From Myxococcales bacterium (GTDB lineage Bacteria; Myxococcota_A; UBA9042; JABWCM01; BTVJ01), in contig BTVJ01000041.1 of assembly GCA_045863395.1 (NCBI GenBank), positions 1 to 64,000 of the forward strand: a DNA stretch of 64,000 nucleotides. Reading direction: 5' to 3'. A model generated the notes under the pieces. It saw nothing but the letters and a program-made list of their open reading frames with translations. It did not search any database and was not told where the DNA came from. This document shows positions 4,685-23,400 of the stretch, piece after piece. The position numbers and the translations under genes were made by a program. How positions within the stretch are numbered: the stretch's first letter is position 1; every line of letters begins with the position of its first letter.

Positions 4685-4688
4685 GCCC

Positions 4689-7600
4689 GTGCTGAACCCC
4701 ATCACCTACACGGAGCGCGTGGTCGAGGACTTCCTGCGCTACCAGCTCACCACCTACCCGTTCACCGACGAGCGCCTGGCGCGGCAGATGCGCGAGCTGC
4801 TCTCCCTCGCCCGGTCGCGGGAGACGCCGCTGCTCCGGGGCCCCTACGTGAGCCTGAGCCGCCCGTTCGAGGAGGGCCCGACCGTCGCCTCCCTGGTGGC
4901 GGAGGGGCTGTTCCACCCGCACATGGTGAACCTGATCCCCCACCCGACGCTCTACGGCCACCAGGGCGCGGCGGTGCGGCACATCATCGCCGAGCGGCGC
5001 CCCACCATCGTCTCGACGGGCACCGGGTCCGGGAAGACCGAGTGCTTCTTGTACCCGATCATCAGCCGGTGCCTGGCGCTCCGCGACGAGCCGGACGGCA
5101 TCGTGGCGGTCGTCGTCTACCCGATGAACGCGCTCGCCGAGGACCAGCTCGGCCGCCTCCGCGCGCTGCTCTGCGGCACGGGCGTCACCTTCGGCATGTA
5201 CGTGGGGGGGACGCCGGAGCGCGACGCCGAGGTTGCCGGGGTCGTGCTGCGGCAGGGCGCCTCCAAGGCCGACTACGAGCGCGCGCTGGAGGAGCAGGCG
5301 GCCGAGCAGAGCGGGCGGGCCGTGCACCCGCCCGAGGAGCGGGCGTCCCGGGAGGCCATGCGCAGCCGCCCGCCGCGGATCCTGCTCACCAACGTGAAGC
5401 AGCTCGAGTACCTGCTCACCCGGCAGAAGGACGTGGAGCTGTTCGACGGGGCGCGGCTCGAGCTCCTGGTGTTCGACGAGGCGCACACGTTCAGCGGAGC
5501 CGCCGGCGCCGAGTCCGCCTGCCTGGTACGGCGGCTCCGGGAGTTCTGTGGCCGGTCCGCCGAGCAGACCGTCTGCGTCGCCACGTCGGCCACCATCGCC
5601 GATCCCCACGGGGCGGCGGACGCCCCACGTCACTTCGCGTCGCGGTTCTTCGGGGTGGCGCCGGACAGCGTTGCGGTCGTCACGGAGCGGTACGCGCGGG
5701 CTCCCTGGCCGGACGAGCGGGTCGTGCCCCCGGCCCTGGCTGGCGCAGCGAACATCCACCTCGACAACGTCCTGTCCGCGCTGCGGAGCGTCGAGGACCA
5801 GCCCGCGGTGCCGGGGTCCATGGAGCTGCTGCGCCGCACCTTCGAGAGCATGACGGGCACGACCCTCGACCGGCACCGGTGGCGCGAGAGCCTCTACGAG
5901 CGCCTCGCGGGCAACGAGGTGGTCTACCAGGTCGCCGCTGCCCTGGAGCGACCGCGGCCGCTGGCGGAGCTGGTCGAGGCGCTTGCGGCCCGGGTCGGCC
6001 GCCCGGTCCCCGAGGAGGAGGTCCTGCTCTGGCTGGCGCTCGGGGCCGCCGCGCGGGACGACGGGCGCCCGCTGCTGCGCCCGGTGGTGCACGCCTTCGT
6101 GCGGGGCGTCGGAGGCGCCGTCGTCACCTTCGCGGACGGCGCGGACGACCCGGTGCTCTGGCTCTCGGCGGAGGACGCGGGCGGAGCGGGCTCGGGGCAG
6201 CGCGCCAGGCTCCCGGTGCTGTCGTGCACGACCTGCGGGCAGCACTACTTCGAGCACCACCTGGAGGACTTCGGCCTCACGGACCGCGCCCCGAGCGGAG
6301 GGCGGACGGACGGCCACCGCCGGCACTGGCGCCCCCTGGACGCGGCCCAGGAGGACAGCCGCCGCGTCGTCCTGCTGGACCGGTCCATCGGTGACGAGGG
6401 GGAGGACGGGGACGCTCCGAAGGACGCCGTGGCGCTGGCGCTGTGCCGCCGCTGTGGCACGGCCTCCCTCGACACCGAGCCGTGCAGCCAGTGCGGCAGC
6501 GGAGCGCCGGTGCCGCTGCTGGTGGTGCGGCAGAAGCACGACCGGCCGGGCAAGCTCACGCGCTGTGTGTCCTGCGGCACTTCGGGCCGCGTCGTGATGG
6601 GCCGCTACCGGGAGCCGGCGCGGCCAGTGCGGGCGCTGGCGGTGGCGGACGTCCACGTGCTGGCGCAGAGCCTCATCCAGCACGCGGAGCGGCGCCGCCT
6701 GCTGGTCTTCACGGACAACCGCCAGGACGCGGCCTTCCAGGCGGGCTGGATGCAGGACCGCGCGCGCCGCTACCGCCTGCGCGCCCTGATGGCGGAGCGG
6801 CTGCGCCGGGGGCCGGTGGGCGTGTCCGATCTGGCAGGCTGGCTCGACGCCCTGATGGACCAGGACGACGACCTGTCGAGGGTCCTCGTGCCGGAGGTGT
6901 GGCGCAAGGTGCCCAAGTCCAAGGTCGGCGTCGAGCACCAGCACGAACGCCGGTACTTCCTGACCATCCAGGTGCTCCGCGAGATCACGACGAGCCCGCG
7001 CCAGCGCATCGGCCTCGAGCCGTGGGGGCGCCTTCGCGTGGAGCACGAGGGCCTCGACGCGACGCTGCCGTTCTTCCTCCAATGGGCGCCGGTCCTGGGC
7101 TGCTCCGCCGCGGAGCTCCGCGACGGAGTGGCGACGCTGCTCGACGGCTTCCGCCGGCGCCTGCTGCTGCACCACCCGTCGGGGCTCTACTCGCGCTTCT
7201 GGCGGGACGGGGCGCCCGAGGTGGTCGCGGGCTACCTGCCGCTCCTGGAGGGTGTGCCCAAGGGCCTCAAGCTGCGTCGCGACCGCGACGACGACGAGCG
7301 GCGCATCGACCAGCTCATCCCCTCGCGGAACCAGACCGTGACGACGCAGGCGGCGTTGCGGTGGGGTGTGCCGGAGGGCGACGTCGTCGGGTTCGTGGAG
7401 GCGCTGTGGCGGCTCCTGACCGAGCTGGGCCTGCTCGTGCCTGTGACGCTCCGCGGGGTGAGCCCGCGCCTCACTCCCCTGCCCCGCTGCGCGGGCGCCC
7501 ACCAGATCGACGCGGACCGGCTGCTCCTCACGGCGTCGAGCAAGGTCTGGCGGTGCCGTGTCTGCCGGAGGACCCAGGCACGACGGACGCCGGGCGCCGC

Positions 7601-10091
7601 GTGCGTGGCCTGGCGCTGCCGCGGGACGGTGGAGCCGGTCGAGGAGCTGGCCGACGACTACGACCTGAGCATGCTGGACCAGCCCTTCGCCATGCTCCGG
7701 CCCCGCGAGCACTCGGCGCAGGTCCCGCGGGAGAGCCGCGAGCGGGTCGAGCGGCTCTTCAAGGGCCCCTCCGAGGCGGTGAACACGCTGGTCTGCACCC
7801 CGACGCTGGAGCTGGGCGTGGACATCGGGGAGCTCGACGCGGTGCTCATGCGCAACGTCCCGCCGCTCCCCGCCAACTACTGGCAGCGCGCCGGCCGCGC
7901 AGGACGCCGCAACCGCATGTCGGTGAACCTCACCTACGCGCGGCAGGCGAGCCACGACCGTGCCTTCTTCGCCGACCCCATGAAGATGCTCGCCGGGCCC
8001 ATCGACCCGCCGAGCTTCAACCTCCGCAACGAGGAGATGGTGCGAAAGCACGTCCACGCGGCGGTCCTGACGGAGCTCCAGCAGGTCGCGCGGCGGCGGG
8101 GCCCGCTCCACCCGGGACGCGACGAGGTCGCGCACGCCTTGAGCACGTGCTTCCCCACGCGCATCAGCGCCTGGCTCTTCGACTCGGCGGGCAACGTGCG
8201 CACAGGCCACTACGACGTGACCTCCCTCGGCGCCGTGATCGCGCGGCACCGGGCGCGCCTGCTCCAGACCGTCGAGCGGGTCTTTGCGCAGAGCTGGCCA
8301 GCCGAGGCCGCGCAGGTGGTGACGCCTGCTCGCCTCGGCGCGGCGGTGGACGCCATGCCCGGGAGGCTCGACGAGATCGTGCGGCGTGTCGAGCGGCGGC
8401 TGGCGTGGGCCATGCGAGAGCAGGACCGCCTCGACGCGCTGCGCCGGACCAGGGGCAGCCTGGAGCCTGACGAGGAGGCGACGTGGGCCCGGTGCTCGAA
8501 GCTCATCAAGCGGCTCAAGGGGGTCGCGAAGGCAAAGGGGGCCGACGCGTCGGGCCAGGACGACACCTACACCTACGCGGTCCTGGCGGCCGAGGGCTTC
8601 CTGCCCGGGTACGGGCTCGAGACGGGCACCGTTGTCGTCACCTACGTGACGCCGCGAGGGTCGAGCGAGCTGCGCGAGTGGGAGCTGCGCCGCGGGACCT
8701 CGCTCGCGTTGCGGGAGAGCTCCCCCGGCAACCTGCTCTACGCCAACGGCCACCGGTTCGTGCCGCGGCAGTTCCACCTGGACCCGGACCCTCCCTTGGC
8801 GCTCCGGGTGGATCCGAGCCGTGAGGTGGTCGTGGAGGCGACCGGCGATGCGCTCTCCGGCCTGGGGGACGCGCTGCTGCCGGCCGTGCGGGTGAGCGAC
8901 GTGGACCTCGCCCACTTCTCCCAGATCTCCGACGAAGAGGAGGTGCGGTTCCAGGTGAGCGTCGCGACCTGGGGCTACGAGCAGGACCGGCACGAGGGCG
9001 GCGCGGCGTGGCTCTGGGGGACGATGGCCGTGCAGCACCGGCGCAGCGTGCACCTGCGCCTGGTCAACGTCGGCGTGTCCTCGCTCGTCCAGGGCACAGC
9101 GCTCGGGTATCCGGTGTGCGAGACCTGCGGGCAGAGCCGGTCGGCGCTGTCGAGCGCCAAAGAGATCGAGCACTTCAGCAAGGTCCATGAGGACCGGTGC
9201 GGTGTGCGCCCGCGGCGCGTCGGCTTCTACGCGGACGTCGTCGCGGACGCGCTCTCCCTGCTCGACCTCCCGGACCGCGGCGTCGCCTGCAGCGTGGTCG
9301 AGGCGCTGCGTCACGGGGCGGCCGACGTCCTGGAGATGGAGCTCGACGACCTGCAGATCCTGGCCCTGGCGCACGCGGGCGACGACCGCGTCGACATGGC
9401 GCTCTACGACCCGATGCCAGGCGGCTCGGGGCTGCTCGACCAGATGGTCGAGCGCTGGCCCGACGTGGTCGAGGCGGCGCTGCGGGTGGTCCGCGACTGC
9501 CCCTCCCGGTGTGACACCTCGTGCCCTGACTGCCTCCGCGAGTTCCGCAACGCGTGGGTCCACCGCCACCTCGACCGGCGCCGCGCCGAGGAGCGGCTTG
9601 CCGCGCTGGGAGACGCCCTGCGGCCGACCCACCCCATCCCGCCGCGGCTGCCGGCTCGGGCCGCGGCAGGCGCGCCGGACACCCCCGGGGAGGCGACGCT
9701 GCACGCGATGCTGGAGCGCGCCGGCCTCGGGGGCTTCAGCATCCACGAGCGCGTCGACCTGGGCCGCCCGGTGGGAGCGACGATCCCCGACGTGTACTAC
9801 GCCGACCCGACCGGGCGCTCGGACGGCCTGTGCGTCTACCTGGACGGCATGAGCCGGGCGCTCCACGGAGACCCGGAGCGGGGGCGCCTCGACGCGCAGA
9901 TCCGAGCCGCCCTGGAGGGCCGGGGCTACGAGGTCCGCGCCATCGCCCAGTCGGACCTCACGGACCGGCAGGCGATGGCGACCCACTTCTACTGGATCGC
10001 GCGAAGGCTGCTACCAGACCGCCAGTCCGCCGACCGCCTCCGCGACGAGCCGACGTGGTTCGAGTCACAGGTCCCGCCGTCCGGGTCCTGA
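4689..10091 (+). CDS. Large SF2 DEAD/DEAH-box helicase (YprA/DruE-like) with Zn-binding CxxC motifs, DUF1998 and a C-terminal Vsr/DUF559-like nuclease domain (1800 aa)
   Basis: STGTGSGKT, VYPMNALAEDQ, DEAH, ATSAT, LLVFTDNRQDA, HSAQ, TPTLELGVDIG, QRAGRAGRR; DUF1998-like YDPMPGGSG...C..C..SCPDCL; tail PDVYY...VYLDG...HG...D..IR..LEGRGYEV. GTG start after GGAGGTG. Confidence 0.92.
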   Translation: MLNPITYTERVVEDFLRYQLTTYPFTDERLARQMRELLSLARSRETPLLRGPYVSLSRPFEEGPTVASLVAEGLFHPHMVNLIPHPTLYGHQGAAVRHIIAERRPTIVSTGTGSGKTECFLYPIISRCLALRDEPDGIVAVVVYPMNALAEDQLGRLRALLCGTGVTFGMYVGGTPERDAEVAGVVLRQGASKADYERALEEQAAEQSGRAVHPPEERASREAMRSRPPRILLTNVKQLEYLLTRQKDVELFDGARLELLVFDEAHTFSGAAGAESACLVRRLREFCGRSAEQTVCVATSATIADPHGAADAPRHFASRFFGVAPDSVAVVTERYARAPWPDERVVPPALAGAANIHLDNVLSALRSVEDQPAVPGSMELLRRTFESMTGTTLDRHRWRESLYERLAGNEVVYQVAAALERPRPLAELVEALAARVGRPVPEEEVLLWLALGAAARDDGRPLLRPVVHAFVRGVGGAVVTFADGADDPVLWLSAEDAGGAGSGQRARLPVLSCTTCGQHYFEHHLEDFGLTDRAPSGGRTDGHRRHWRPLDAAQEDSRRVVLLDRSIGDEGEDGDAPKDAVALALCRRCGTASLDTEPCSQCGSGAPVPLLVVRQKHDRPGKLTRCVSCGTSGRVVMGRYREPARPVRALAVADVHVLAQSLIQHAERRRLLVFTDNRQDAAFQAGWMQDRARRYRLRALMAERLRRGPVGVSDLAGWLDALMDQDDDLSRVLVPEVWRKVPKSKVGVEHQHERRYFLTIQVLREITTSPRQRIGLEPWGRLRVEHEGLDATLPFFLQWAPVLGCSAAELRDGVATLLDGFRRRLLLHHPSGLYSRFWRDGAPEVVAGYLPLLEGVPKGLKLRRDRDDDERRIDQLIPSRNQTVTTQAALRWGVPEGDVVGFVEALWRLLTELGLLVPVTLRGVSPRLTPLPRCAGAHQIDADRLLLTASSKVWRCRVCRRTQARRTPGAACVAWRCRGTVEPVEELADDYDLSMLDQPFAMLRPREHSAQVPRESRERVERLFKGPSEAVNTLVCTPTLELGVDIGELDAVLMRNVPPLPANYWQRAGRAGRRNRMSVNLTYARQASHDRAFFADPMKMLAGPIDPPSFNLRNEEMVRKHVHAAVLTELQQVARRRGPLHPGRDEVAHALSTCFPTRISAWLFDSAGNVRTGHYDVTSLGAVIARHRARLLQTVERVFAQSWPAEAAQVVTPARLGAAVDAMPGRLDEIVRRVERRLAWAMREQDRLDALRRTRGSLEPDEEATWARCSKLIKRLKGVAKAKGADASGQDDTYTYAVLAAEGFLPGYGLETGTVVVTYVTPRGSSELREWELRRGTSLALRESSPGNLLYANGHRFVPRQFHLDPDPPLALRVDPSREVVVEATGDALSGLGDALLPAVRVSDVDLAHFSQISDEEEVRFQVSVATWGYEQDRHEGGAAWLWGTMAVQHRRSVHLRLVNVGVSSLVQGTALGYPVCETCGQSRSALSSAKEIEHFSKVHEDRCGVRPRRVGFYADVVADALSLLDLPDRGVACSVVEALRHGAADVLEMELDDLQILALAHAGDDRVDMALYDPMPGGSGLLDQMVERWPDVVEAALRVVRDCPSRCDTSCPDCLREFRNAWVHRHLDRRRAEERLAALGDALRPTHPIPPRLPARAAAGAPDTPGEATLHAMLERAGLGGFSIHERVDLGRPVGATIPDVYYADPTGRSDGLCVYLDGMSRALHGDPERGRLDAQIRAALEGRGYEVRAIAQSDLTDRQAMATHFYWIARRLLPDRQSADRLRDEPTWFESQVPPSGS

Positions 10092-10930: not shown

Positions 10931-13390
10931 CTACGGGCACCCTGGCATCGGGCAGGGGCCGTCCTCGCACGGCTCGAAGATGCGGACGAGCCAGATGTTC
11001 TCGTCTTCGTAGTACGTGTTCCCGGCGAGCGCGGCGCCGCCGGGCGCGGCGGCGAGGATCCCCATGGGGCTGGGAGGATCCGGCAGGCCCGTGAGCCCCC
11101 ACAGCGTGCCGTCTGGGGTCACGTGGCCGTACCAGAAGGGGGTGTCCTTCTGCCAGGTCTTGCCGAACAGCGTTGCGCCGGTTCCGTCAGAGACGCCATG
11201 CCAGATGGGGGTGGTGAGCTTCTTCTCCCACACGACCGAGCCGTCGCTGCCGAGCCGCCGGAGCCACCCGCTCTCCACCTTGCCCCCGCCGCTGGTGTCC
11301 ATGCCCTCGCCGCCCGCGAGGAAGTCGCCATCGGGCATTGCGATCAAGAAGCGGGTCGTGTCGTTGATCGGGGTCGGATAGGTCGTGTCGGACAGCGTCA
11401 CCAGCTCGTGGTCGGTCACCACCAGGCGGACGTCCCCATAGCCTGGCGCGGGCGTCGTCACATAGCCGAGCATGCCGACCGTGTCCTCCGTCGAGGCGAC
11501 GCGACGGAGCCCGCCGATGGTCGCCGGGCCGCCGACCCAGGCGGTCTCTCCCTGAAGCTCGCCGCCAGCGTCGATCCGAAACGCCCACGGGTAGGAACCT
11601 CCCAGTCCGCCGACGTGCCCGACGATCACGTAGCCACCGCCGGGGAGCGGAGCAATCGCATAGGCATACTCTTCCGAAGGGCCCCCGACTGCCGTCGTCC
11701 ACTCAAGCGAACCATCCGGCGCGGTCCTGCCGACCAGCACGTTTGGTTGCGCCGGCACTCCCCCAACCACCACCCACACCGTGCTCCCGTCCGGATCGAC
11801 CGAGAGGGCCCGGATCTCCGTGTGCGCGGAGACCGGGTACGTCTTCGCCCAGAGCAATGTCCCCTCCTCGTCCACGCGGAGCAGGTGCGGCTGGGACATC
11901 TCCAGCGCTGACGGACTGAAGGCACCGCCCACGACGAAGCCGCCCTGTGGGTGAGCTGCCACGGCCAACGCACTCTGCAAACCCTTGGCCTTGTAGATTC
12001 GCGTCCACCCCTGGAGGGCGCTCGGCACGCAGACGCCGTCGTCGCACTGCCCGCCGAGCGCGCAGCCCGCCGGCTGGCATGGACCCGCGGCCGCCACGTT
12101 GCGGCACCCGATGGCGGGGTCGCACGAGTCCGCGGTGCACGGGTTGCCATCGTCGCAGACCACCGGGCTTCCGGCACACTGACCGGAGACGCACACGTCG
12201 TCGACCGTGCACGCGCTGCCGTCGTCGCAGGGCGCCCCGGGCTCTGCGACGAGCGGATCGCAGTCCGACGCCATGTGGCACTGTCCATCGACGCACCGTG
12301 GCTTCGCGTCCTCTTCGCAGGTCGCCTTCCCCGCGTAGCATCCGACCCACATGAAGTGAGCGCAGTAGTCGACAGCCACTGACTCGGCAGCCGCGACGAA
12401 CGCGTCGGCCTCGCTGGAGGCAACGGCGACGGGACAGCTCGCGCCACACGGTGACTTCAGGAGCACCTCCTGACAGCCGGCGTCTTCGGTGCAGCCGCCA
12501 TGAGCGGAGGCCGCGGCGGCAATCTGCTCCTTGGACGCGGCGATGGCAGCCGCGCACGTCAAGCAGCCCTCGACCGTCTTGACGTGGTTGGCCGGGCACC
12601 CCGGGGAGCACTTCACCCCAAGGCAGAACTCCGTCGACATGCAGTATTTCAGCCCCTGGGCGTTGCAGGTGCACCAAGAGGTGGGGCCGCACTCCCCGCA
12701 GCAACACATCTTCCCCATCGGGCACACCATCGGGAAGCTGCAGACAGCGTTGGGCGGGAACGTACCCATCTCGTCGGGGCACTTCGTCAGGATGATCGGG
12801 CCTGTGCCGTCGGATGAATCATCCGTTGCGTCTTGCGCCCCGTCCGCGTACGACTCGGTCGCGTCGACTGGCGCACCTGAGTCTCCGGGCGACTCCACGT
12901 CGGTTGGGTCCGGCATGTCACCGTGCGTCTGCCCGTCGGTCGGTCCCGGCGCGTCGCTTGGCGCCTGTGCGTCCTGGAATCCTTGCCCATCGGTCAATCC
13001 CACGGCGTCTTCATGCTGCTGTCCCAAATCATCGGCGGCTCCTCCGCTATCGCCCTGCGGGGCTGCCCCTCCGTCGCCCGGCGACGAGTCTGCGGCGGCC
13101 CGCGTCACGCCATCGGAGACGGCGCCGTCGGAGGGCAGCGCACTGCTGTCCGGCGCAGAAGCGTCCAGCGATGCGCCAGCCTCGGGTCCCTCTCCTCGGG
13201 GAGTCAGGTCGGTGATCTGGTCCTCCGCCGTGGAGCCCGCGCTGCCATCCTGAGCTGCGGCGCTGCCACCCACGTCCGAAGGCGTCAAACCGCACGAGGT
13301 CTGGAACAGCGCGACCGCGCCGAGGAGGCTCAGGCGACCGAGCCACTGGGACGGGCAGACGAGCGACGTGGGAGTCAGACCGCGTACCAT
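10931..13390 (-). CDS. Secreted Cys-rich lipoprotein with Asp/Ala-rich linker, CDDGxxCT repeats and a C-terminal beta-propeller-like region
   Basis: GGAGG RBS; signal ending FQTSC; CDDGSACTVDDVC and CDDGNPCTADSCDP repeats; repeated D.xG.xxW.K.Y blades. Confidence 0.8.
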   Translation of the reverse strand: MVRGLTPTSLVCPSQWLGRLSLLGAVALFQTSCGLTPSDVGGSAAAQDGSAGSTAEDQITDLTPRGEGPEAGASLDASAPDSSALPSDGAVSDGVTRAAADSSPGDGGAAPQGDSGGAADDLGQQHEDAVGLTDGQGFQDAQAPSDAPGPTDGQTHGDMPDPTDVESPGDSGAPVDATESYADGAQDATDDSSDGTGPIILTKCPDEMGTFPPNAVCSFPMVCPMGKMCCCGECGPTSWCTCNAQGLKYCMSTEFCLGVKCSPGCPANHVKTVEGCLTCAAAIAASKEQIAAAASAHGGCTEDAGCQEVLLKSPCGASCPVAVASSEADAFVAAAESVAVDYCAHFMWVGCYAGKATCEEDAKPRCVDGQCHMASDCDPLVAEPGAPCDDGSACTVDDVCVSGQCAGSPVVCDDGNPCTADSCDPAIGCRNVAAAGPCQPAGCALGGQCDDGVCVPSALQGWTRIYKAKGLQSALAVAAHPQGGFVVGGAFSPSALEMSQPHLLRVDEEGTLLWAKTYPVSAHTEIRALSVDPDGSTVWVVVGGVPAQPNVLVGRTAPDGSLEWTTAVGGPSEEYAYAIAPLPGGGYVIVGHVGGLGGSYPWAFRIDAGGELQGETAWVGGPATIGGLRRVASTEDTVGMLGYVTTPAPGYGDVRLVVTDHELVTLSDTTYPTPINDTTRFLIAMPDGDFLAGGEGMDTSGGGKVESGWLRRLGSDGSVVWEKKLTTPIWHGVSDGTGATLFGKTWQKDTPFWYGHVTPDGTLWGLTGLPDPPSPMGILAAAPGGAALAGNTYYEDENIWLVRIFEPCEDGPCPMPGCP

Positions 13391-13653
13391 GGAACCTCCG
13401 TCCGGCTGCCGCCGTGAGGCGAAGCCCGTCACCCTCGGTGGTTGACACCGCGGGCACCTGCGACACGGCCGGCTGGCTCGTCCGACGCGGCGCCTGGGCC
13501 CCCCAAGGGGAACCCCCACACCACGGGCCTGCAAGCCTCCGAGCGGGCGACGGCCCTCAGGCACCGATCCGCGGAGCATGACACGCTCCCATGGCGGCAG
13601 CAGCTCATGACTGGAGTCTACCCCTGCCGGGTGTCCCCACCAAGGCCAAGTGC

Positions 13654-16020
13654 TCAGGACGGGTGTGCGGCAGGGATATGGCGCGCCACGTCGAGCTGTG
13701 ACGTTCCCGCACGTGCACGAACAAGGATGAATGGGCTGGTGCTCCCATCGGGCGTGAAACGGGCGTGTACTGGCCCTGTCATCTCCAGAACACCACCGGA
13801 TGCGACCCAGGTGACCGTGGCTTCGCCCTCCCCTGTGACCCGGGCGCACAGATCGAGGGAGTCCCCCAGCCGCCGTGCCTCCATCCTTACGCGGAAGGAG
13901 CGGTCCAGGGGACCCGACCGCTCGGCGCGTGGGAGGTCGCCAAATGTCACATCCGGCGGCGGCGGGTCGACCACGGTGGGGGCATCCGCTGCGTCAGGCA
14001 CGTCGTCGGGCAGCGGCGCGTCGCTCCAGGCGTCCAGGACATCGGGCGGCAGGGGATCCCAGACCAGGGGCACGTCGGCCGTGTCTGCGCCCGCGTCCGG
14101 GGGCAGGGAGTCCCACTCCATCCGCGAGCCCTCATCCACGAGGGCCGCGTCCAGGGCGTCGCCGACGTCGGGGGGCAGCGGGTCCAGCACATCCCAGGTG
14201 GCGGCGTCCGGGGGCAGCGGGTCGACCACCTGAACGTCGAACGTCGCATCCGGGGGCGCCGGGTCCACCACCTGCGTGTCCACACCCTGGTGGCCGGCGT
14301 CTTGGTCGTTCGTCACGGGCGACGTGCACCCCTGCACCGCGACCGCCGCCGCCATCATGGCCGCCGTGCGCGCCATGTGCAGGCCCCGGACGGGCGCCAG
14401 GAGCGCGACCGAGCGCGGCCGGGCCCACGCCTCCATCTGGCGCCTGAGCTCCTCCATGCGGGGCCAGAACCATGCGTCGGCACGGGCCACCTCCTCCGCG
14501 AGGGCCTCCGTGAAGGCGACGACCTCCTCGTCGCTGCGCCCGGAGGCGGACACGAAGCGCCGCGCGCGCGTCAGCTTCTCCAAGGTGTCGGCCCCGAGGG
14601 CGCGGGTCAGCGAGAGCACCTCCAGCCCGAAGGCGCGCGCCTGCGGGCCCGGGTGGAACCAGGCGAGCAGCGCCGCGAGATACCCGATTCCGCTCAAGGC
14701 GTTGGCTGTGCTCTGCTCACCGAAGTTGCGAGGTCCGAAGGCCACCGCCGTGATGCGGAACAGCCGCTCCACGCGAGGGTCCTCGATGGTGTAGGTCATG
14801 CCATCGAGGCCGCCCCGGAGCCTCCCCGCGTCCCGCAGCCGCTGCTCCAGGACGCTGCCCGGATAGACCTCCGTGCGACAGAAGTTCCATGGGAAATCGA
14901 GACTTCCCCGAAGAAAGCTCAAGTTCTCGTCGATGTCAGTGAGGGTCGTGTCCGGCTCGAAGAGCAGCACGTTGAAGCAGGCGAAGACCCCGGCATCGCG
15001 GAGCAGGTCCAAGGCGCGGGCACACGCCGCGACCGTGGTGCGGCGGCCCAGGTGGTCGAGGCCGGCCTGGCTCCCGTTCTCGACGCCCACGTAGAGGCGC
15101 ACGACGCCCATGCGCCGCGCCTCGTGGAGCAGCTCCCGCGACAGCTCGTCCGGGCGACACTTGGCCACGAGGGAGACCTTGCCGACCCCATGCCCATCCA
15201 GAGCGAGGCGAAGCGACCGGAGCCGCTCCAGCGTGTGGGCGGGCTTGGGCAGGAAGAAGTTCTCGTCGTGGAAGCAGAAGATGCGCGCCTCGCGGCTGCG
15301 ATACAGGCTCGCCATCTCCGCCGCGATGGCCTCGGGGGAGCGCAGCCGCACGCGGGGCCCCGTCCGCCCGCGGTGGTACGTGTGGATGGAGCAGTAGGTG
15401 CAGGACTGCCAACACCCGCGGCTCCCGAGGATGGGCGCAAACCCCAGCCCCAGGTGGCGCGCGCCGGGCCCCGACCGGAGGGGCAGGTCCAGGGTGTCCA
15501 GGTCGCGGGGGACCTCGCGGGGTGGCGTGGCGCCCGGGCGGCCACCGGGCAGGCGGAAGGCGACGCCGCTCACCCGGGACAGGCGCTCGAGGACAGGCGA
15601 CGCCAGGACCCGGTGGGACCCGCCCACCGGGAGGGGCGCGCCAACCAGCGCCGCTGCTACGTCCACGAGGGTCTGCTCGCCGTCGTGGCGCACGACCACG
15701 TCCACCTCGGGCACACCGTCGAGGATCTGGCCAGGGCGGGCCGTCGGGATGTGCCCGCCCCACACGATGAGCCCGTTGACGCTGGCAGCGCGCAGGTCCC
15801 GCGCCAGCGCCCGGAAGTCCCCCAGGCGGTGCTGGAACGCCACGGACATGCCGATGAGCTCAGGCCGGGTCATTCGGAGGCGGCCCACCACCTGCCTCCG
15901 CTCCTCCGGCGTGTCGAAGCCCACGATCTCGACGCTGTGACCAGCCCGAACGAGCGGGGTCGCCAGGTAGCGGACGGCCAGGTTCTCTTCCAGATCGGCG
16001 CCGACGAGCGCGACACGCAT
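13654..16020 (-). CDS. Cobalamin-binding (class B) radical SAM enzyme fused to a lipoprotein-like segment with VxDPxPPD repeats and a small beta-rich C-terminal domain
   Basis: N-terminal B12-binding fold (ENLAVRYLA...LIGMS...IVWGGHIPT...HDGEQT), SRGCWQSCTYC CxxxCxxC, FHDENF, LYVGVENGS, YPGS. GGAGG RBS. A single open frame runs to 13654. Confidence 0.9.
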   Translation of the reverse strand: MRVALVGADLEENLAVRYLATPLVRAGHSVEIVGFDTPEERRQVVGRLRMTRPELIGMSVAFQHRLGDFRALARDLRAASVNGLIVWGGHIPTARPGQILDGVPEVDVVVRHDGEQTLVDVAAALVGAPLPVGGSHRVLASPVLERLSRVSGVAFRLPGGRPGATPPREVPRDLDTLDLPLRSGPGARHLGLGFAPILGSRGCWQSCTYCSIHTYHRGRTGPRVRLRSPEAIAAEMASLYRSREARIFCFHDENFFLPKPAHTLERLRSLRLALDGHGVGKVSLVAKCRPDELSRELLHEARRMGVVRLYVGVENGSQAGLDHLGRRTTVAACARALDLLRDAGVFACFNVLLFEPDTTLTDIDENLSFLRGSLDFPWNFCRTEVYPGSVLEQRLRDAGRLRGGLDGMTYTIEDPRVERLFRITAVAFGPRNFGEQSTANALSGIGYLAALLAWFHPGPQARAFGLEVLSLTRALGADTLEKLTRARRFVSASGRSDEEVVAFTEALAEEVARADAWFWPRMEELRRQMEAWARPRSVALLAPVRGLHMARTAAMMAAAVAVQGCTSPVTNDQDAGHQGVDTQVVDPAPPDATFDVQVVDPLPPDAATWDVLDPLPPDVGDALDAALVDEGSRMEWDSLPPDAGADTADVPLVWDPLPPDVLDAWSDAPLPDDVPDAADAPTVVDPPPPDVTFGDLPRAERSGPLDRSFRVRMEARRLGDSLDLCARVTGEGEATVTWVASGGVLEMTGPVHARFTPDGSTSPFILVRARAGTSQLDVARHIPAAHPS
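13945..14280 (-). repeat. Peptide-level repeats inside the rSAM gene: VVDPAPPD, VVDPLPPD, VLDPLPPD, EWDSLPPD, VWDPLPPD, WSDAPLPD, VVDPPPPD
   Basis: Read from the translation of ORF 13654..16083. Confidence 0.9.
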
Positions 16021-16160
16021 GACCCACCTCCACGAGCGGCAGCGTCGCGGCCCAGTGTATAGGGCCCGACCGCGCGTGCTCATGGAGATACACCAGGACG
16101 GTTACAGCGACTGATGCCAGCAGGCCAGGATGTGGAACATCGGTTACACAACGACCTTGT

Positions 16161-17012
16161 TCAGCGGCCTCGCTTCGCCCTGCGCTCCGCGGCGTTCAGC
16201 GCCTCCCGCTCCGCCGCCAGCCGGACCAGCGCCGCCTGCATGGCCCCGTGTACCTGCTCGTGGCACCGCTCCACGTAGTCCGCGTCCTCGGCGGCTCCTT
16301 CCCCATGACGGTCGAAGTGGACCGGCGGCAGGACCTCCATGACCATACGACTCGGCCACGGAAAGTGGGGCGGCGTCGGCCCTATCGTGAGTCCCCACGG
16401 CAGGCTGAGCGCCACGGGCCACCGCTTCACGCGGAAAAGGCGGTCGGCGCCGATGGCCTCCGCGATGTGGCGGCCGTCGTCCAGGATGACGTAGGTCTCA
16501 TGCGCACCCGCCGTCACCACAGGCACGATGGGCGCCCCGGCGCGCAACGCGAGGCGGATGTACCCCCTCCGCGGCCCGAAGATCACCTTGTGCCGGTCGC
16601 GCCAGGAGCGCATGGCGTCCAGGTCCCCGCCCGGATAGACCAGCACCTTGTGGCCCTCCCGCAGGGCGCGGAGCCCGTTGTCCGGGCACGCCCGCACGGC
16701 GCCCATGGGGACGAAGAGCTGGTGGACGAGCGGCCACCGGATGGGCACCTCGTGCATGAGGCCGTAGGGCAGCGCCGAGACGCCGTGAGCCCGCAGGGCG
16801 GCGATGCCGAAGACGTAGGAGTCGGGGGTCAGCATGCCGGCGTTGTGGTTGCCCACGTACAGGGCCGTCCCGGCGGGGATGCGGTCCAGGCCGTGGATGA
16901 CGGGGCGGAACCAGCGCCACAGGAGCGGCTCCACGAGGGCGGCGATGCGCTCGATGCGGGCCGGGTCCCGGTTGTCCATCGAGTCGGTGTCGTACCAGCG
17001 CATGGGCGTCAT
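16161..17012 (-). CDS. Lysophospholipid/glycerol acyltransferase family protein (PlsC/DGAT2-like)
   Basis: LYVGNHNAG..D, VLVYPGG, GYIRLALRAGAPIVPV. Confidence 0.9.
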   Translation of the reverse strand: MTPMRWYDTDSMDNRDPARIERIAALVEPLLWRWFRPVIHGLDRIPAGTALYVGNHNAGMLTPDSYVFGIAALRAHGVSALPYGLMHEVPIRWPLVHQLFVPMGAVRACPDNGLRALREGHKVLVYPGGDLDAMRSWRDRHKVIFGPRRGYIRLALRAGAPIVPVVTAGAHETYVILDDGRHIAEAIGADRLFRVKRWPVALSLPWGLTIGPTPPHFPWPSRMVMEVLPPVHFDRHGEGAAEDADYVERCHEQVHGAMQAALVRLAAEREALNAAERRAKRGR

Positions 17013-18439
17013 CCTTTCACCACGATCAGTGGGACGAGCCGGGCCACCTTGCGGGCCAGGCCCGCGCCCGCCACGGCGTCGACCACGTCCGCCACGTCCT
17101 TGTAGGCTTCGCTGATCTCCTCGGCGACCGTCCGGGGGCTATCGCTGCGCACCAGGATGCCGCGCTGGGCCAGCTCCTGGAAGAGCGAGCGGCCCCGCGC
17201 CTCCTTGAGCGCCGCGTGGCGTGACAGGCGCCGCCCCGCGCCATGACAGCAGGAGCCCCAGGTCTCGCGCATGGCCCGCTCCGTGCCCGAGAGGACGAAG
17301 CTGTAGCGCCCCATGTCACCGGGGATGAGCACGGGCTGTCCAACCTGACGGTACCGCTCCGGCACGGACGGGTGCCCGGGCCCGAAGGCGCGCGTCGCTC
17401 CCTTGCGGTGGACGCACAGGCGCCGCACCTGGCCGTCCACCTCGTGCTCCTCCCACTTGGCGATGTTGTGGCACACGTCATAGACGAGCCGGAGGCCGAG
17501 CTGTCGCCAGCCGCGCCCCAGGCACCGCTCCAGGGCCTCCCGCACGAAGTGGGTCATCATCTGGCGGTTGGCGAACGCGTAGTTGACGGCGCAGGCCATG
17601 GCCGCGAGGTAGGCGCGGGCCTCGGGGCTCCCGAGCGGCGCCGCGCAGAGCTGCTTGTCGGGCAGGGCGATGCCGTAACGGGCCGAGGCGGCGAGCATGT
17701 CCCGCAGGGAGTCGTCGCAGACCTGGTAGCCCAGGCCACGGCTCCCCGAGTGGATCATGACGGTCACCTGCCCGTGGTGCAGCCCGTAGGCGGCCGCGGC
17801 GGCCTCGTCGTAGATGGCGTCCACCCGCGCCAGCTCGCAGAAGTGGTTGCCCGAGCCGAGCGAGCCGAGCTGAGGCAGACCCCGCTCCTTGGCCCGCTCC
17901 GATACGAGGCCCGGATCGGCTCCCCGGAGCTGCCCGTGCTCCTCGATGACCTCGAGATCGGCCGCGTCCCCGTAGCCGCTGCGCACCGCCCAGGCGGCCC
18001 CCTGGACCAGCACGTGGTCGAGCTCGCGTGGCGTCAGGTGGCGGTGGCTCCGGGAGCCCACCCCGGACGGGATGGCCTGGTGCAGCGCGGTCGCGACCGC
18101 CTCCAGGCGGCCGTCCAGCTCACCCGCGTCCAGGTCGCTGCGCAGGAGCCTCACGCCGCAGTTGATGTCGTAGCCCACGCCGCCGGGCGAGACCACGCCG
18201 CCCTCGCCGAAGGCCGCCACCCCCCCGATGGGGAAGCCGTAGCCCCAGTGGATGTCCGGCATGGCGATGGACGCGCCGACGATGCCGGGCAGGTGCGCCA
18301 CGTTGACGACCTGCTCGGGGCTCTTGTCCGCGCGGATGTCCTCGATGAGGGCCTCGGAGGCGTAGACGAGACCCGGGACAAGCATGGCGCCCCGGCGGGG
18401 AATGCGGTAGCGGTGCGCGTCGAGCTGCTCGAACTGCAT
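17009..18439 (-). CDS. rtcB: RNA-splicing/repair ligase RtcB
   Basis: MPDIHWGYGFPIGGV, GVGYDINCG, LGSLGSGNHF, HSGSRG, YDVCHN, HRKGAT, PGDMG, HGAGR, EAYKDV, VVKG end. Confidence 0.97.
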   Translation of the reverse strand: MQFEQLDAHRYRIPRRGAMLVPGLVYASEALIEDIRADKSPEQVVNVAHLPGIVGASIAMPDIHWGYGFPIGGVAAFGEGGVVSPGGVGYDINCGVRLLRSDLDAGELDGRLEAVATALHQAIPSGVGSRSHRHLTPRELDHVLVQGAAWAVRSGYGDAADLEVIEEHGQLRGADPGLVSERAKERGLPQLGSLGSGNHFCELARVDAIYDEAAAAAYGLHHGQVTVMIHSGSRGLGYQVCDDSLRDMLAASARYGIALPDKQLCAAPLGSPEARAYLAAMACAVNYAFANRQMMTHFVREALERCLGRGWRQLGLRLVYDVCHNIAKWEEHEVDGQVRRLCVHRKGATRAFGPGHPSVPERYRQVGQPVLIPGDMGRYSFVLSGTERAMRETWGSCCHGAGRRLSRHAALKEARGRSLFQELAQRGILVRSDSPRTVAEEISEAYKDVADVVDAVAGAGLARKVARLVPLIVVKG

Positions 18440-18864: not shown

Positions 18865-20294
18865 GGCGCGCTCCGCTCGCAGGCCAACAACCGCTGGTAG
18901 CGCTCCCAGCCTGGTCCCCCCTTGGCGGCGAGGCGCCGCGCCATGACGCGGTTCTCCTCGGCGCGGGCGAGCCGCTCGTAGGGGGACGCCCGCAGCTCGA
19001 GGGCGTCCAGGGAGGCGCCCGCGCGCTCCAGGGCTGCGGCGGCCTCGCTCAGGGCGCGGAGCTCTGGCCAGGTGTCGAGCGCGCTCGCGATGGCGACCCC
19101 GTCCCTGGCCAGGGTCGTCGCGAACTCCGGGTGCCAGGGGTCGTCGAGCACCGGCCATCGGGAGAGGAGCCGCCCCGCCGCCCTCCGGAACGCCGCCTGC
19201 TCCTCCCGCTCCGCCTCGTCCACCGCGCGCCGCGCCGCCTCGACCCCTGCGCGCAGATCGCGCTGGCGGCGCCTCGCCTCGCCCGAGCGCCCCGCGAGAC
19301 CGAGCGACTCGCCCAGGGCCCGCACCACCGCGTCCTCCTCCGGCAGGGCGACAGGCGCCTCCGGACCCGCGGCGGGCGCCTCGGCCCGGAGCCACCGCTC
19401 GGAGGTGGTCGTCGGCACGCCCAGCGACCGCATGGCGATGCGCGCACGGGTGTGGGCCTCGAGGAGCGACACGCGGCCGTCTCCGTCCAGGTCGAGGGTC
19501 GGGATCGGCAGCGGCTCCCCCGCGCGGTCCCGCCCCCGCAAGGCATTGAGCAGGTGGAGCGCGTACCCGTCGTGGGTGCGCCTGTCCGGGTCCGGGTCGC
19601 ACCCGCTGGCCTCGGCGTCCCAGGTGGAGGCGAACAGACCGCAGCGGTCCCCCTCCGCGGGGCCCGCCCCCGGGTCGGCCCCCTTGAACACGAGCTCAGC
19701 GAACCCTCCCGAATAGCAGGACGTGACGATGACCCGCACGCGCCGATCCGGTGGGGCCAGGTCCAGGACCTGCGCCAGGTCGGCGGGCCCGATCGCCTCG
19801 TCCCCCCACGTGAGCAGAGCCGCGTCCCGGGGACCGTTGCCTCGCTCGCCGTGGCCCATGAGCAGCAGCAGCGGCTCGCCCGTGACGAGGGACTCCACCG
19901 CGTCCAGGATGCCGTCTGCCGTGGCAGCCCCGTCGGGGCGCGCCGTGGTCGCGCGGTAGGTCGCGTCGCGCCCCCCCCGCGGCGAGAAGATGGCGCCGAG
20001 GCGCTGGAGCAGGTCGTCGCGGCTGGAGGTGCGCACCTGCACGGCCCGGGTCTCCGAGCCGCCGGCAAAGAGCAGGAGGCCGCTGCCTGCACCGAGCACC
20101 TCCCGCGCCAGCGCCAGATCCGCCTCGATGGACACCTGGTTCAGCTCGGGGGTGGGGCCGCCCCCCGCGGCGACCCAGCGGAGGGGCGCCGGGCGCACAG
20201 CGGGCGGTGGCTCGGCCTCCACGAGCAGCGGCGGCCGCAGCAGCGCCAGGCCCAGCAGAGCTGCGATCAACGGGCCGGGGGACGGCTGGCGCAT
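18861..20294 (-). CDS. Secreted caspase-fold (C13/legumain-like, clan CD) cysteine peptidase
   Basis: Signal-like N-terminus; LLLLMGHG (His) and VIVTSCYSGGF (Cys) dyad; DLDGDGRVS EF-hand-like loop; ATGA overlap with archease. Confidence 0.7.
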   Translation of the reverse strand: MRQPSPGPLIAALLGLALLRPPLLVEAEPPPAVRPAPLRWVAAGGGPTPELNQVSIEADLALAREVLGAGSGLLLFAGGSETRAVQVRTSSRDDLLQRLGAIFSPRGGRDATYRATTARPDGAATADGILDAVESLVTGEPLLLLMGHGERGNGPRDAALLTWGDEAIGPADLAQVLDLAPPDRRVRVIVTSCYSGGFAELVFKGADPGAGPAEGDRCGLFASTWDAEASGCDPDPDRRTHDGYALHLLNALRGRDRAGEPLPIPTLDLDGDGRVSLLEAHTRARIAMRSLGVPTTTSERWLRAEAPAAGPEAPVALPEEDAVVRALGESLGLAGRSGEARRRQRDLRAGVEAARRAVDEAEREEQAAFRRAAGRLLSRWPVLDDPWHPEFATTLARDGVAIASALDTWPELRALSEAAAALERAGASLDALELRASPYERLARAEENRVMARRLAAKGGPGWERYQRLLACERSAP

Positions 20295-20499
20295 GGTCTC
20301 CCTCGTGCGGGTCGTGGGTGCCGCTGCGGCGGCCGCAGTATGCCAGGGGCCACGGAGTGCGACAACGCGAGGTGTCAAGCGAGCCCCGCCGGGGCGCCAC
20401 TCCCGTTACGCCCCTGCCCCGCGGCCCCGACGAATTCCTCTCCCAGCTCCCGACCACATGGAGTATGGTGGCGCCACTTCGTCCAACGTGAGGAATGCG

Positions 20500-23400
20500 A
20501 TGCGCTTGCTCCGCACCGTCTCAGCGCTCCTGGCAGCCCTCGTCCTGCTCGCCGCACCGCCCCTGGCCGCCGACCTCGACCGCCGCCTCAGCGTGCAGGG
20601 CCGCATGGACACCGCCGCCGGCGCCCCGGCGAGCGGCACCTTCGATCTCACCGTGCGCCTGTTCCCGACCGACACGGGCGGCACCAGCGTCTACACGCAG
20701 GCGCTGACCGGGGTGGTCGTCGCCGCGGGGCTCTTCGACGCAGAGATCGGCCCCCTGCCGGCGGGCGTCCTGGAGGCGGCGGACTCCCTCTGGCTGGAGG
20801 TGCAGGTGGGCTCCGACACCCTCCCGCGCCGCCCGCTGCGCGCCGTGGCCTACGCCCTGGTCGCACAGCAGGCGCGGACCGCGCTCACCTCCGCCGACCT
20901 CGCCTGCAGCGGGTGTGTTGCGGCGGCGGAGGTCGCCTTCGGCTACGCCGCCTCGGACACCAAGGGAGGCGACGCGACGGGGCTCTCCTGCACCGGGTGC
21001 ATCGGCGCCACGCAGATAGCGGCCGGGTCCGTAGGCACGGCGCAGCTCGCCGTCGGGGCGGTCACCGCTGAGAAGGCGGCCTTCAACTACGCGGGGGCGA
21101 ACGCCGTCGGCGGACCGGCCAAGGACCTCGCCTGCACCCGCTGCGTGGGCTCGGACGACCTGGCGACGAGCCTCGCGCTGGTCGGCGACGTGGGCGTCGA
21201 GGGGAGCCTCACGGCCTGCCAGGCGGGGGCCCCCGGGTGCGCCGTGGGCGTGCGCGACACGAAGCTCACGGCCGCAGGCGACGGGTGGCTGACGGTGGGC
21301 GCGCCCATTGGAGTCCAGGTCCGCGACACGTCAGGCAGCGCGTACCGCCCCCTGGTCTTCGGCGGCGGCACCTCCGTCGGCAACCTGGAGGTCACCGGGG
21401 CGCTGGCCGCATCGACCGCCGTGGTCGGCGGCAGCGTCCAGGTGGCTGGAGACGCAGCGGCCTGCAACCAGTCGAAGGCCGGCGCCATCCGGTGGGTCGC
21501 CGGGTCGCTGGAGTTCCAGGGCTGCAACGGCGCAAACTGGGTGCGCCTCGACAACGCGCCCCAGCCCATCGTCACGGGGATCACGCCGTCGAGCAGCCCG
21601 CTGGCCGGCGGCCCGACGATCACGCTCACCGGCGCCAACTTCGCGGCCGGCGCCACGGTCGCCTTCGGCGGGCTGGCCTCTCCCAACGTCACCTTCGTCA
21701 ACTCGTCGACGCTGACCGCGGTCGCCCCGCCGGCCGCCGTGACCGGAGCGGTCGCCATCGTGGTGACCAACCCGGACGGCTCCGGGGGCGGCACGACGGG
21801 CTTCATCTACTACGCGCCCCCGGCGGTGTACGCGGGGTCCCTCTCGGAGGGCGTGGGGCTCCGCTACCAGTACTCGCCGCTGTCGGCGGGCTTCCTGAAG
21901 GCCAACTGGGCCCCTCAGCCCTGGGTGAGCGGGTACGTGGTGCAGGTGGGCACGAGCCCCGGCGGGTCCAACGTGGTCGGCCCCACCAACGTCGGCTCTC
22001 AGACGAGCTTCACGGCCAGCGGCTTGACGTTGCAGGGGGCCTGGAGCGGCACCTCGTACTACGTCACTGTCGCCTATCAGGGGCCCTCCGGCACCGTCAC
22101 GAGCGGCACCTCGGGGCCCCTCGGCATCGCCGAGGCCGTGAGCTGGGACGGCGTGGCGACCTCTGGCCTGCTCAACACCTCGTCCATCGGCGGCTACACG
22201 GCGAACTTCCCGTCCGGCAGCAACTGGACCGTGTTCTACGGCAACCACTACTTCGAGACGGTCACCATCGCCAACGGCACCACCGTCCGGGTGCAGCCGT
22301 TCGGGCTCGCCGACAGCGTCCCGGCCGGCGTCTCCCCGTCCGACTCGCGCGTGACCAGCCCCAAGGATGGCTGGCTCGGCATCTACGCCAACGAGATCAC
22401 GGTCGCCGGGGTCATCGACGCTCGCGGGCGAGGGTATGGGGGCGGCGCCGGGGCGGGAGCGACGAACGCGGGCTCGGGCCTTGGCGGCTCCAACGGGCTG
22501 TCGGGCAACGGAGGCGGCGGCGGCTCGGGGAATGGCGCCGGCGGCGTGGGCCGTGGCGGCGGCGGCGGCGGCGCGAACGGTTCGTGCGGCAGCGGCCCGA
22601 AGAACGGCGGCGCCGGCGGCGTCTTCGGCGGCGGCGGTGGCGGCGTCAGCGGCTTCATGTGCAACAGCAGCACTGGAGCGGGCCACGGCGGCGACGCCCA
22701 GAGCAGCGGCGCCGGAGGTAACGGGAGCGGAGACTGCGGCGGCGCCGGCGGCGCGGCCGACTACAAGGGCGGGCGCTCCACGCCGGTCAATGGGTCATCG
22801 CACTTCGGCGGCGGCGGCGGCGGCGGCTACGGCGCTGGCGGCGGCGGCGGCGGGTGCGCGGGCTACGGCGGCGGCGGCGGCGGAACGGGCGGCTTCCCGG
22901 CCAGCGCCTTCATCGCCTCGAACGCGAACAACAACAAGGGCGGCGGCCCGGCGGGCGGCCTCGGCGGCGACGCCAGCTCGTCGAGCGTCGGCATGTGCGG
23001 ACGAGCTGGAGGCTACAACGCCGCTGGCACCAACACGGACACCACGACGGACGCCTCCTTCCGCCTCGGCTCCGGCGGCGGTGGCGGCACGACGACCAAC
23101 GTCACGTCCGACTGCTGCGAGGGCGGCGGCGGCGGCGGCGCGGGCGGTGGCGCCGTGCGGCTCATCGCGGCGAACACGCTCAGCGTCACGGGGCAGGTGC
23201 TGGCCGGGGGCGGCGCAGGCGGCGCCGGGAACTCCCGCACCGGCGGCGACGCGGACAACGGCGGCGGCGCGGGCGGCGGCGGCGGCGGCATCGTGCTCTC
23301 GGGCGGCACCCTGGCGGTCACCGGCACGGTGCGGACGCTGGGCGGCCAGGACGGCTACTTCGTCGACTGCGGCAACGCCCTGACCTGCCCCGGGACCACC

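Follow-up and report, generated by a model that had tools for sequence, protein, structure and literature searches.

The described systems that come closest to the gene treated here are of several kinds. The bottromycin and polytheonamide methylases serve as comparison systems, TIGR04133/TIGR04134 is a pair of a radical S-adenosylmethionine (SAM) enzyme and a lipoprotein, and the spliceases are radical SAM enzymes without a cobalamin (B12) domain. According to PMC11414181, the spliceases PlpXY and RhaXA act on a short portable motif, X-Tyr-Gly, in a neighbouring protein, and an engineered splicease whose leader helix is fused at the C-terminus also works. It has been reported for the DAG-RiPPs lipo-DybAH and lipo-NedABC that a cytoplasmic MNIO enzyme modifies a precursor motif, which is sometimes repeated, and that the precursor, bearing a signal peptidase II signal, is then lipidated; in the main text of that report the words "radical SAM", "cobalamin" and "fused" do not occur (PMC13056109). 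Borosins are known in fused (types I–III) and split (types IV–X) forms, with repeated acidic cores and a docking domain, the BBD (bioRxiv 10.1101/2021.12.24.474128). Among the B12-dependent (class B) radical SAM enzymes, MgmA methylates a residue inside a protein (PDB 9ccb). The present gene, P0001, lies in the first 64,000 nucleotides (nt) of contig BTVJ01000041.1 of a Myxococcales bacterium (assembly GCA_045863395.1), a stretch which is called the window below; the organism is found in sludge. In one reading frame, the gene fuses a lipoprotein-like tail onto a class B radical SAM enzyme.

P0001 belongs to a real, conserved system of unusual fused design, probably one of enzyme plus tailored lipoprotein. 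It is undescribed as far as the open-access literature goes, in which no description was found; subscription papers and the supplementary tables of B12 radical SAM surveys could list it. The reading that we favour, with a confidence a little above even, is that of a self-tailoring fusion of enzyme and substrate: the motifs of the tail would be modified in cis, probably by C-methylation, and the tail would then be lipidated and released. The sequence-only reading had laid the gene out as B12-binding and radical SAM domains followed by a signal-like stretch, repeats and a beta domain, and translation, Pfam and AlphaFold2 all agree with this. The 788-amino-acid (aa) frame has no internal stop, and its start at ATG 16020 matches the start of the homologues. 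The AlphaFold2 model of the whole protein (57 sequences; predicted template modelling score 0.82) has the helical domain of the enzyme running to about aa 541, a helix at 545–561, low confidence over most of 562–693 and a seven-stranded beta domain at 710–781. No promoter-like site was found for the fused gene, and the lone terminator-like site inside it is at chance level. The gene as a whole and its enzyme half consist of the following parts:

13654..16020, minus strand: fused gene P0001, class B radical SAM enzyme plus lipoprotein-like tail, 788 aa.
16026..16031, minus strand: Shine-Dalgarno-like GGAGGT upstream of the ATG at 16020 (reading of the sequence).
15658..15987, minus strand: B12-binding Rossmann domain, aa 12–121 (Pfam PF02310, 66.8 bits, cut-off 32.1; aligned to TokK and OxsB).
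Within that domain, minus strand: Phe62, in the loop behind strand 3 (alignments to TokK and OxsB).
14914..15423, minus strand: radical SAM core, aa 200–369 (Pfam PF04055, 59.2 bits, cut-off 29.5).
15391..15414, minus strand: CX3CX2C iron-sulfur motif (Cys203, Cys207, Cys210), then Ile212 (sequence and conservation).
In the radical SAM core: family-specific Lys287 and Asn350; directly past it, Arg382 and Glu384 (conservation).
14398..14778, minus strand: C-terminal helical domain of the enzyme, aa 415–541 (AlphaFold2 model).
On the helical domain: predicted docking surface, aa 409–436 and 496–523, including Arg422 (complex model).

A protein search was seeded with the whole fused protein, which favours fusions. 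Among the best 120 of its 186 matches, 114 of the 119 non-self homologues have 2–14 copies of D-[PSAM]-[LPVAM]-[PA], and the remaining five comprise a partial record, two stand-alone enzymes of short length and two fused tails that lack this pattern. When 401 genomes of the phylum were searched with the enzyme core only, 58 places in 41 genomes were obtained (40 fused, 16 stand-alone, 1 truncated at a contig end and 1 broken). The fusion is thus real and kept among homologues, as had been proposed from the sequence. A scan of genome contigs gave, among the matches listed, mostly distant class B enzymes, 9 of the 50 loci being family members. Named records among the matches listed come from Myxococcales, other Deltaproteobacteria, one Gemmatimonadota and one Omnitrophota genome, and a fused member also occurs in Candidatus Sulfotelmatobacter; some members are labelled magnesium-protoporphyrin cyclase (BchE) or YgiQ-like in source databases, labels that find no support here. 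After removal of 16 duplicates, all matches below 400 bits and cut cores, the pooled sources gave 290 distinct cores, which were thinned at <75% identity to 231 rows; of these, 182 are fused and 49 are stand-alone or cut.

DNA context was available for 19 stand-alone enzymes, 16 from the phylum sample and three from the contig scan. Inspected by eye, 14 of them have a same-strand neighbour that opens with a signal-like segment, in most cases closed by a Cys, and that contains a motif matching [VAC]-D-[PE]-x-P or [AC]-E-[MK]-[AI]-[PA] (L023, L025, L027, L030, L032, L086, L088, L090, L091, L092, L093, L097, L098 and L100), so that the adjacent lipoprotein genes which the sequence-only reading had proposed to look for do exist. 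In L023, L027, L030, L090 and L093 the ATG of the partner overlaps the stop of the enzyme (ATGA). Among the lipoprotein-like frames in the own genome, 7 of 556 fit this pattern, a contrast which is somewhat inflated because the pattern was written after the partners had been seen. That is to say, the tail is a complete lipoprotein-like protein, which in relatives is a separate adjacent gene.

Several members depart from this scheme. L107 (G309:C280:296-830) is a broken copy in which the B12 domain ends after 148 aa and is directly followed by an end-domain remnant, as if the middle part had been deleted. L106 and L108 form a distant fused subfamily (E ~1e-39) with a signal-like stretch and no D/E-x-x-P repeats; their tails hold Cys-bearing domains ending in short C-terminal Cys motifs, and their target may differ. 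P0208, P0217 and P0237 make up a small clade with no signal directly past the enzyme, a hydrophobic C-terminal stretch instead, and single D-M/Y-x-x-like motifs in the tail. A further clade of the D type defined below (L011, L015, L017, L019, L022, L043, L084, L085) has short Pro-rich tails without the end domain, and several of its genomes hold two or three paralogues with differing tail types.

The tail of P0001 consists of the following parts:

14326..14376, minus strand: internal lipoprotein-signal-like stretch, with Met549 (14374–14376), an Ala-rich hydrophobic helix and lipobox-like VQG-Cys565 (14326–14328) (sequence pattern).
14248..14265, minus strand: core motif 1, Asp586, DPAPPD (pattern and family matrix).
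14206..14223, minus strand: core motif 2, Asp600, DPLPPD (pattern and family matrix).
14167..14184, minus strand: core motif 3, Asp613, DPLPPD (pattern and family matrix).
14095..14112, minus strand: core motif 4, Asp637, DSLPPD (pattern and family matrix).
14041..14058, minus strand: core motif 5, Asp655, DPLPPD (pattern and family matrix).
14005..14022, minus strand: degenerate motif, Asp667, DAPLPD (pattern; at most 5 bits with the family matrix).
13951..13968, minus strand: core motif 6, Asp685, DPPPPD (pattern and family matrix).
13666..13917, minus strand: Ig/PKD-like beta-sandwich end domain, aa 702–785, a candidate docking ("follower") domain (profile, model and fold comparison).

Met549, Cys565 and the six clear and one degenerate motif copies stand exactly where they had been placed from the sequence. 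Six copies of D-[PS]-x-P-P-D are observed, whereas none of 20,000 shuffled versions of the acidic region held more than one, so that the repeats are not mere low complexity. In the family there are two types of tail: D-type tails have V-V-D-P-x-P-P-D in 2–14 copies, and E-type tails have T-H-x-x-E-M-A-P in 1–6 copies. The motif copy number thus varies among homologues while the motif is kept, which is what the sequence-only reading had wished to see checked. Common to both types is an acidic residue with Pro three places on. The motif patterns fixed these two residues, and counts of 4-mers made without that constraint agree with them, the commonest being, among 92 D-type tails, DPPP, PPPP and DPLP (67–71 tails each) and, among 61 E-type tails, EMAP (32 tails). 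Val at position −1, considered as a possible target, reaches 52% in the D type and is outside the five commonest residues there in the E type; being so variable it is a poor candidate, and it was rejected as the modified residue. At the level of sequence, the shared part of the motif is the acidic residue and Pro, not Val.

The domains behind the motif are of unrelated kinds. Pfam names TonB C-terminal, carboxypeptidase-regulatory, ankyrin and HYDIN-like Ig domains in 3 of 17 fused proteins scanned, the tails of the other 14 having no Pfam name. Because the motif is retained while such extracytoplasmic domains are exchanged, it acts like a portable tag. When the motif types of 102 D and 66 E rows were mapped on a FastTree tree built from the cores, 4 changes were needed, against a mean of 52 for shuffled labels. 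At residue 310, which sits on a strand of the barrel, 95 of 102 D rows have Tyr and 65 of 66 E rows have Phe; as kin share labels and there are only 2 independent pairs, this match is no proof of co-evolution. Positions 346 and 446, which were equal in raw counts as correlates of motif type, go either way in independent pairs and were dropped. Other DPxPP lipoproteins, for which a scan of the own genome had been proposed, were rejected as trans substrates: no other frame has two or more copies of the pattern from the sequence-only reading, and among the 126 other matches of at least 12 bits to the family matrix in six frames, no lipoprotein-like signal precedes any of the top 30. One tandem PPPPD run in that genome (G000, C48:12393-12920, minus strand) has a high matrix score, and no lipoprotein-like signal was seen with it.

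By domain and by fold, the first 541 aa form a cobalamin-dependent radical SAM enzyme of the cytoplasm, and the class B assignment made from the sequence is supported by Pfam scores above the cut-off for both domains and by the fold matches. Cys203, Cys207 and Cys210 are present in 100% of the 231 rows. With VIA-align, the core is tied between MgmA (Z 22.4; root-mean-square deviation (rmsd) 3.3, 372 aligned), OxsB (Z 21.6; 5.0, 480) and AprD4 (Z 21.4; 3.2, 404), and the next matches are CysS, TsrM and TokK. No NCBIfam family reaches its cut-off for P0001 (bits/cut-off: BchE 96.9/481, HpnR 65.1/650, ApyD 62.6/750, KedN5 51.3/700, TIGR03975 32/282), and the ESM Atlas offers nothing more specific for the core than generic B12 radical SAM clusters, and no usable name for the tail. 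Judged by these comparisons, the enzymes form an unnamed class B radical SAM family, outside all the named families tested. Within the family, Lys287, Asn350, Arg382, Glu384 and Arg431 show 90–98% conservation, whereas 12 distant class B relatives have, for the most part, other residues at these positions. Lys287 and Arg382 would hold the carboxylate of the motif, although no model made places the motif in the active site.

In regard to the chemistry, radical methylation has been tied to a hydrophobic residue under cobalamin (Trp76 in TokK) and to a second one between cofactor and cluster (Trp215 in TokK), and OxsB has Asn186 with a water and lacks the second hydrophobic residue, as stated in PMC12931638 and PMC13331322. 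In the present family, Phe62 aligns with TokK Trp76 across a one-residue gap and is kept in 215 of 231 rows. Ile212 occupies the place of TokK Trp215 in 224 of 231 rows (Val or Leu in the rest), directly behind TokK Asp214, at which the alignment ends; the correspondence is one of sequence only.

The end domain appears to be peculiar to this system. Its profile, built from the clade of the window, is matched among fused tails by 111 of 120 of the D type and by 2 of 56 of the E type; since half of the family is without it, it is dispensable for the family as a whole. It is also found at the C-terminus of the split partners L088, L091, L092 and L098 (E 1e-14 to 1e-16), more weakly in L023, L032 and L086, and once in the own genome. 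A protein-collection search with the end domain alone (8,000 candidates scored; seeds from this system) gave at least 31 proteins, and 31 of 31 carry the enzyme or the motif: 22 B12 radical SAM fusions by Pfam, five fusion pieces and four stand-alone lipoproteins with a single motif just past the Cys. Its model (predicted local distance difference test (pLDDT) 89.6) is a generic all-beta Ig/PKD-like sandwich. The fold matches, ICAM-2 (Z 8.9, rmsd 2.2, 73 residues) and a PKD domain (Z 8.4, rmsd 2.9, 80 residues), reflect a common Ig-like arrangement that names no function, and they were set aside as a functional clue.

When aa 1–545 and aa 676–788 were modelled as separate chains, the complex scored 0.91, with 0.01 for the best control. 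Of 157 solved complexes 116 reach this mark, as do 2 of 215 mismatched pairs; the job used two halves of one protein, an author-made alignment and ligands, so these benchmark counts hold only roughly. At least 64% of the contacts are common to the runs, and the pLDDT of the partner is at least 75. The predicted interface lies between aa 409–436 and 496–523 of the enzyme and aa 702–707 and 761–785 of the tail. Arg422, which contacts Leu705 in the model, occurs in 99 of 99 enzymes that are accompanied by the end domain, be it in their own tail or in a neighbouring protein, including all 7 stand-alone enzymes with such a partner, and in 20 of 98 others. Asp685 is not among the confident contacts, which is no evidence either way. 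The end domain looks, in the predictions, like a docking module on the helical domain of the enzyme. Neither this likely role nor the family-wide D/E-x-x-P motif was part of the sequence-only reading.

The most likely working of the system is proposed to be as follows. The Ig-like end domain would clamp onto the helical domain, the disordered repeat region would be looped out beside the active site, and the enzyme would modify the [D/E]-x-x-P motifs one after another, most likely by radical C-methylation at or beside the acidic residue. Until its enzyme is loaded with the cofactors, the tail would have to remain cytoplasmic. The internal signal would be used late: Lgt would lipidate Cys565, and LspA would cut ahead of it, which would free the modified lipoprotein from its own enzyme. 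LspA, three Lgt matches and TatC are present in the host genome. Of the 182 fused members in the family, 178 have a hydrophobic stretch behind the enzyme and 162 a Cys after that stretch, while 124 fit a stricter lipobox pattern. A wider and more tentative statement would be that a widespread and undescribed B12 radical SAM system adds a new modification to exported proteins at a portable [D/E]-x-x-P tag, mostly in the form of a self-processing, follower-clamped polyprotein that is modified one repeat after another and then freed and lipidated by the housekeeping lipoprotein pathway through a signal some 550 residues inside the chain, with a chemistry that may be OxsB-like; such chemistry could be a rearrangement or ring formation at Asp/Glu in place of methylation. 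The cutting into peptides that the sequence-only reading had also allowed has left no sign: the tails carry folded extracytoplasmic domains and so give no pointer to small-peptide processing, and no conserved protease or transporter was seen by eye to adjoin the loci read.

Several points weigh against the self-tailoring, exported fusion. A docked and folded end domain fits poorly with Sec export, there is no twin Arg just ahead of the hydrophobic stretch in the protein of the window (P0156 has a weak internal Tat-signal match, under the cut-off), and no paper on internal lipoprotein signals behind a cytoplasmic domain was found in the open-access literature. The docking score may reflect only intramolecular packing, and over 7 independent pairs the link of Arg422 to the end domain is not significant (p 0.5; sign tests 0.25–0.5); for the D/E type and residue 310, the 2 independent pairs put significance out of reach. 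As to the motif, 29 of 182 fused tails have no motif label, many of them with a single or odd motif and some with none; among the split loci, L095 has a near-miss motif, L035 is ambiguous, and L028, L031 and L104 have no partner in the available DNA; and both the motif patterns and the neighbour count were fixed only after the data had been inspected. As to the chemistry, the closest solved structure by sequence is the non-methylating OxsB (E 9e-29), in which a Phe likewise stands where the present family has Phe62 and in which Asn186 aligns with the variable position 61. Because Phe62 and Ile212 match the methylases, yet OxsB shares the Phe, sequence comparison makes C-methylation the somewhat likelier outcome and leaves a considerable share to other radical chemistry.

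Four alternatives were weighed. The one that survives best, although we regard it as unlikely, keeps the modification in cis and gives up export: the signal-like helix would be a relic of the fusion or a leader/activator helix, and the product would stay attached or be freed by another protease. In agreement with this, helix 545–561 is modelled as ordered and as a continuation of the helical domain (pLDDT ~70–75), the end domain is predicted to fold on a cytoplasmic enzyme, a leader helix fused onto the C-terminus of the splicease RhaX is an activator according to PMC11414181, and the Cys is missing in 10 of 61 E-type fused members. A relic would not be expected to keep the Cys in 91 of 92 D-type fused members (cores <75% identical), nor do the typical extracytoplasmic domains of the tails suit this explanation.

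It is improbable that the tail is not a substrate at all, that is, that the stretch anchors the enzyme, the repeats are a spacer or binding motif, and the target is a lipid or small molecule as for HpnR- or BchE-like enzymes. The repeat region is indeed disordered in the model, an acyltransferase gene lies directly upstream in the window, and BchE and HpnR give the top NCBIfam scores; these scores are, however, far below their cut-offs, no acyltransferase was seen by eye to adjoin the relatives, split partners keep a single motif copy, and the D/E form switches with the enzyme clade.

Still less credence is given to two proteins made from one frame, by a start at Met549 or by in-frame coupling, with the lipoprotein modified in trans. 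Met549 does stand 16 aa ahead of Cys565, with GGGG a few bases upstream, and split relatives use ATGA coupling at the same place; but no stop precedes Met549, and a Met 15–32 aa ahead of the Cys is present in only 28 of the 124 fused members with a lipobox-like Cys, in a count that took in Met and not GTG or TTG starts. For that reason the internal start which the sequence-only reading had considered is not the rule, and Met549 was rejected as the start of a family-wide mechanism.

The last alternative, an assembly error or missed stop, has next to no probability and was deemed already refuted: the genome is from a metagenome-like source and split forms exist, but a DNA contig from run X7, which is not marked as a possible source, spans 13577–17200 unbroken with 12 substitutions and 0 gaps, and more than 100 divergent homologues have the same fusion. 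A read error is ruled out by this independent contig together with the motif-bearing homologues counted above, and one of the cases that would have undone the sequence-only reading thereby falls away. No insertions or deletions in the gene are listed across the 4 runs examined. Contigs from RNA libraries cover the fused gene, one of them (X14) bridging the junction of enzyme and tail; X14 may be DNA, and such contigs cannot show transcription.

The neighbouring genes of the window are as follows, and neither the acyltransferase nor the RtcB gene was seen adjoining the relatives.

16161..17012, minus strand: acyltransferase gene (PF01553, DAGAT-like), ending 141 nt upstream of the enzyme start.
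17009..18433, minus strand: RtcB RNA ligase gene (PF01139), overlapping the acyltransferase gene on its upstream side.
10931..13396, minus strand: Cys-rich lipoprotein-like protein of ~820 aa with a Dictyostelium-type repeat, ~260 nt downstream of the stop of the fused gene; no D-P-x-P-P repeats occur in it.
4440..10091, plus strand: large DEAD-box helicase with an MrfA Zn-binding domain and sub-threshold likeness to DpdJ and DECH helicases.
19990..23544, plus strand: Gly-rich surface-type protein with a TIG / choice-of-anchor Z domain.

If the self-tailoring reading is true, a B12 radical enzyme joins the few enzymes known to tailor lipoproteins ahead of their export, with its target tag and docking domain named and its reaction testable with one gene. 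Enzyme-substrate fusion in the style of the borosins would then extend to oxygen-sensitive radical chemistry, signal peptidase II would be able to free a product from a long cytoplasmic enzyme, and protein labelling would benefit from a short portable tag compatible with many unrelated domains.

The class B enzymes MgmA/QCMT (9ccb), OxsB (5ul2), TokK (7kdx), CysS (9n1b) and TsrM (6wte) have the same B12-binding Rossmann domain and radical SAM barrel as the present enzyme, and none of them is known to carry an export signal or its own substrate; the identity to them is only 14–21%, and Lys287, Asn350, Arg382, Glu384 and Arg431 are specific to the present family. TIGR04133/TIGR04134 match neither P0001 (E 0.01) nor the tail and six split partners (E 0.1). 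With the spliceases, the engineered form offers a precedent for a helix behind the enzyme acting as a leader. The DAG-RiPPs would be analogous in combining a cytoplasmic metalloenzyme with a lipoprotein precursor, if the product is lipidated here as we propose; they differ in having MNIO enzymes, separate precursor genes and an N-terminal signal, whereas here the enzyme is a B12 radical SAM protein and the signal is internal, at aa 549–565. An N-terminal signal on a separate precursor is nevertheless what the split relatives have. The likeness to borosins is one of architecture only, with fused and split lineages, acidic repeats (here putative cores) and a docking domain. Borosin enzymes are non-radical backbone N-methyltransferases, while Pfam finds here only B12-binding and Radical_SAM domains; the BBD is a five-helix domain, while the docking candidate is an all-beta Ig-like sandwich; and in contrast to the borosins, the export signal here sits between the enzyme and the core.

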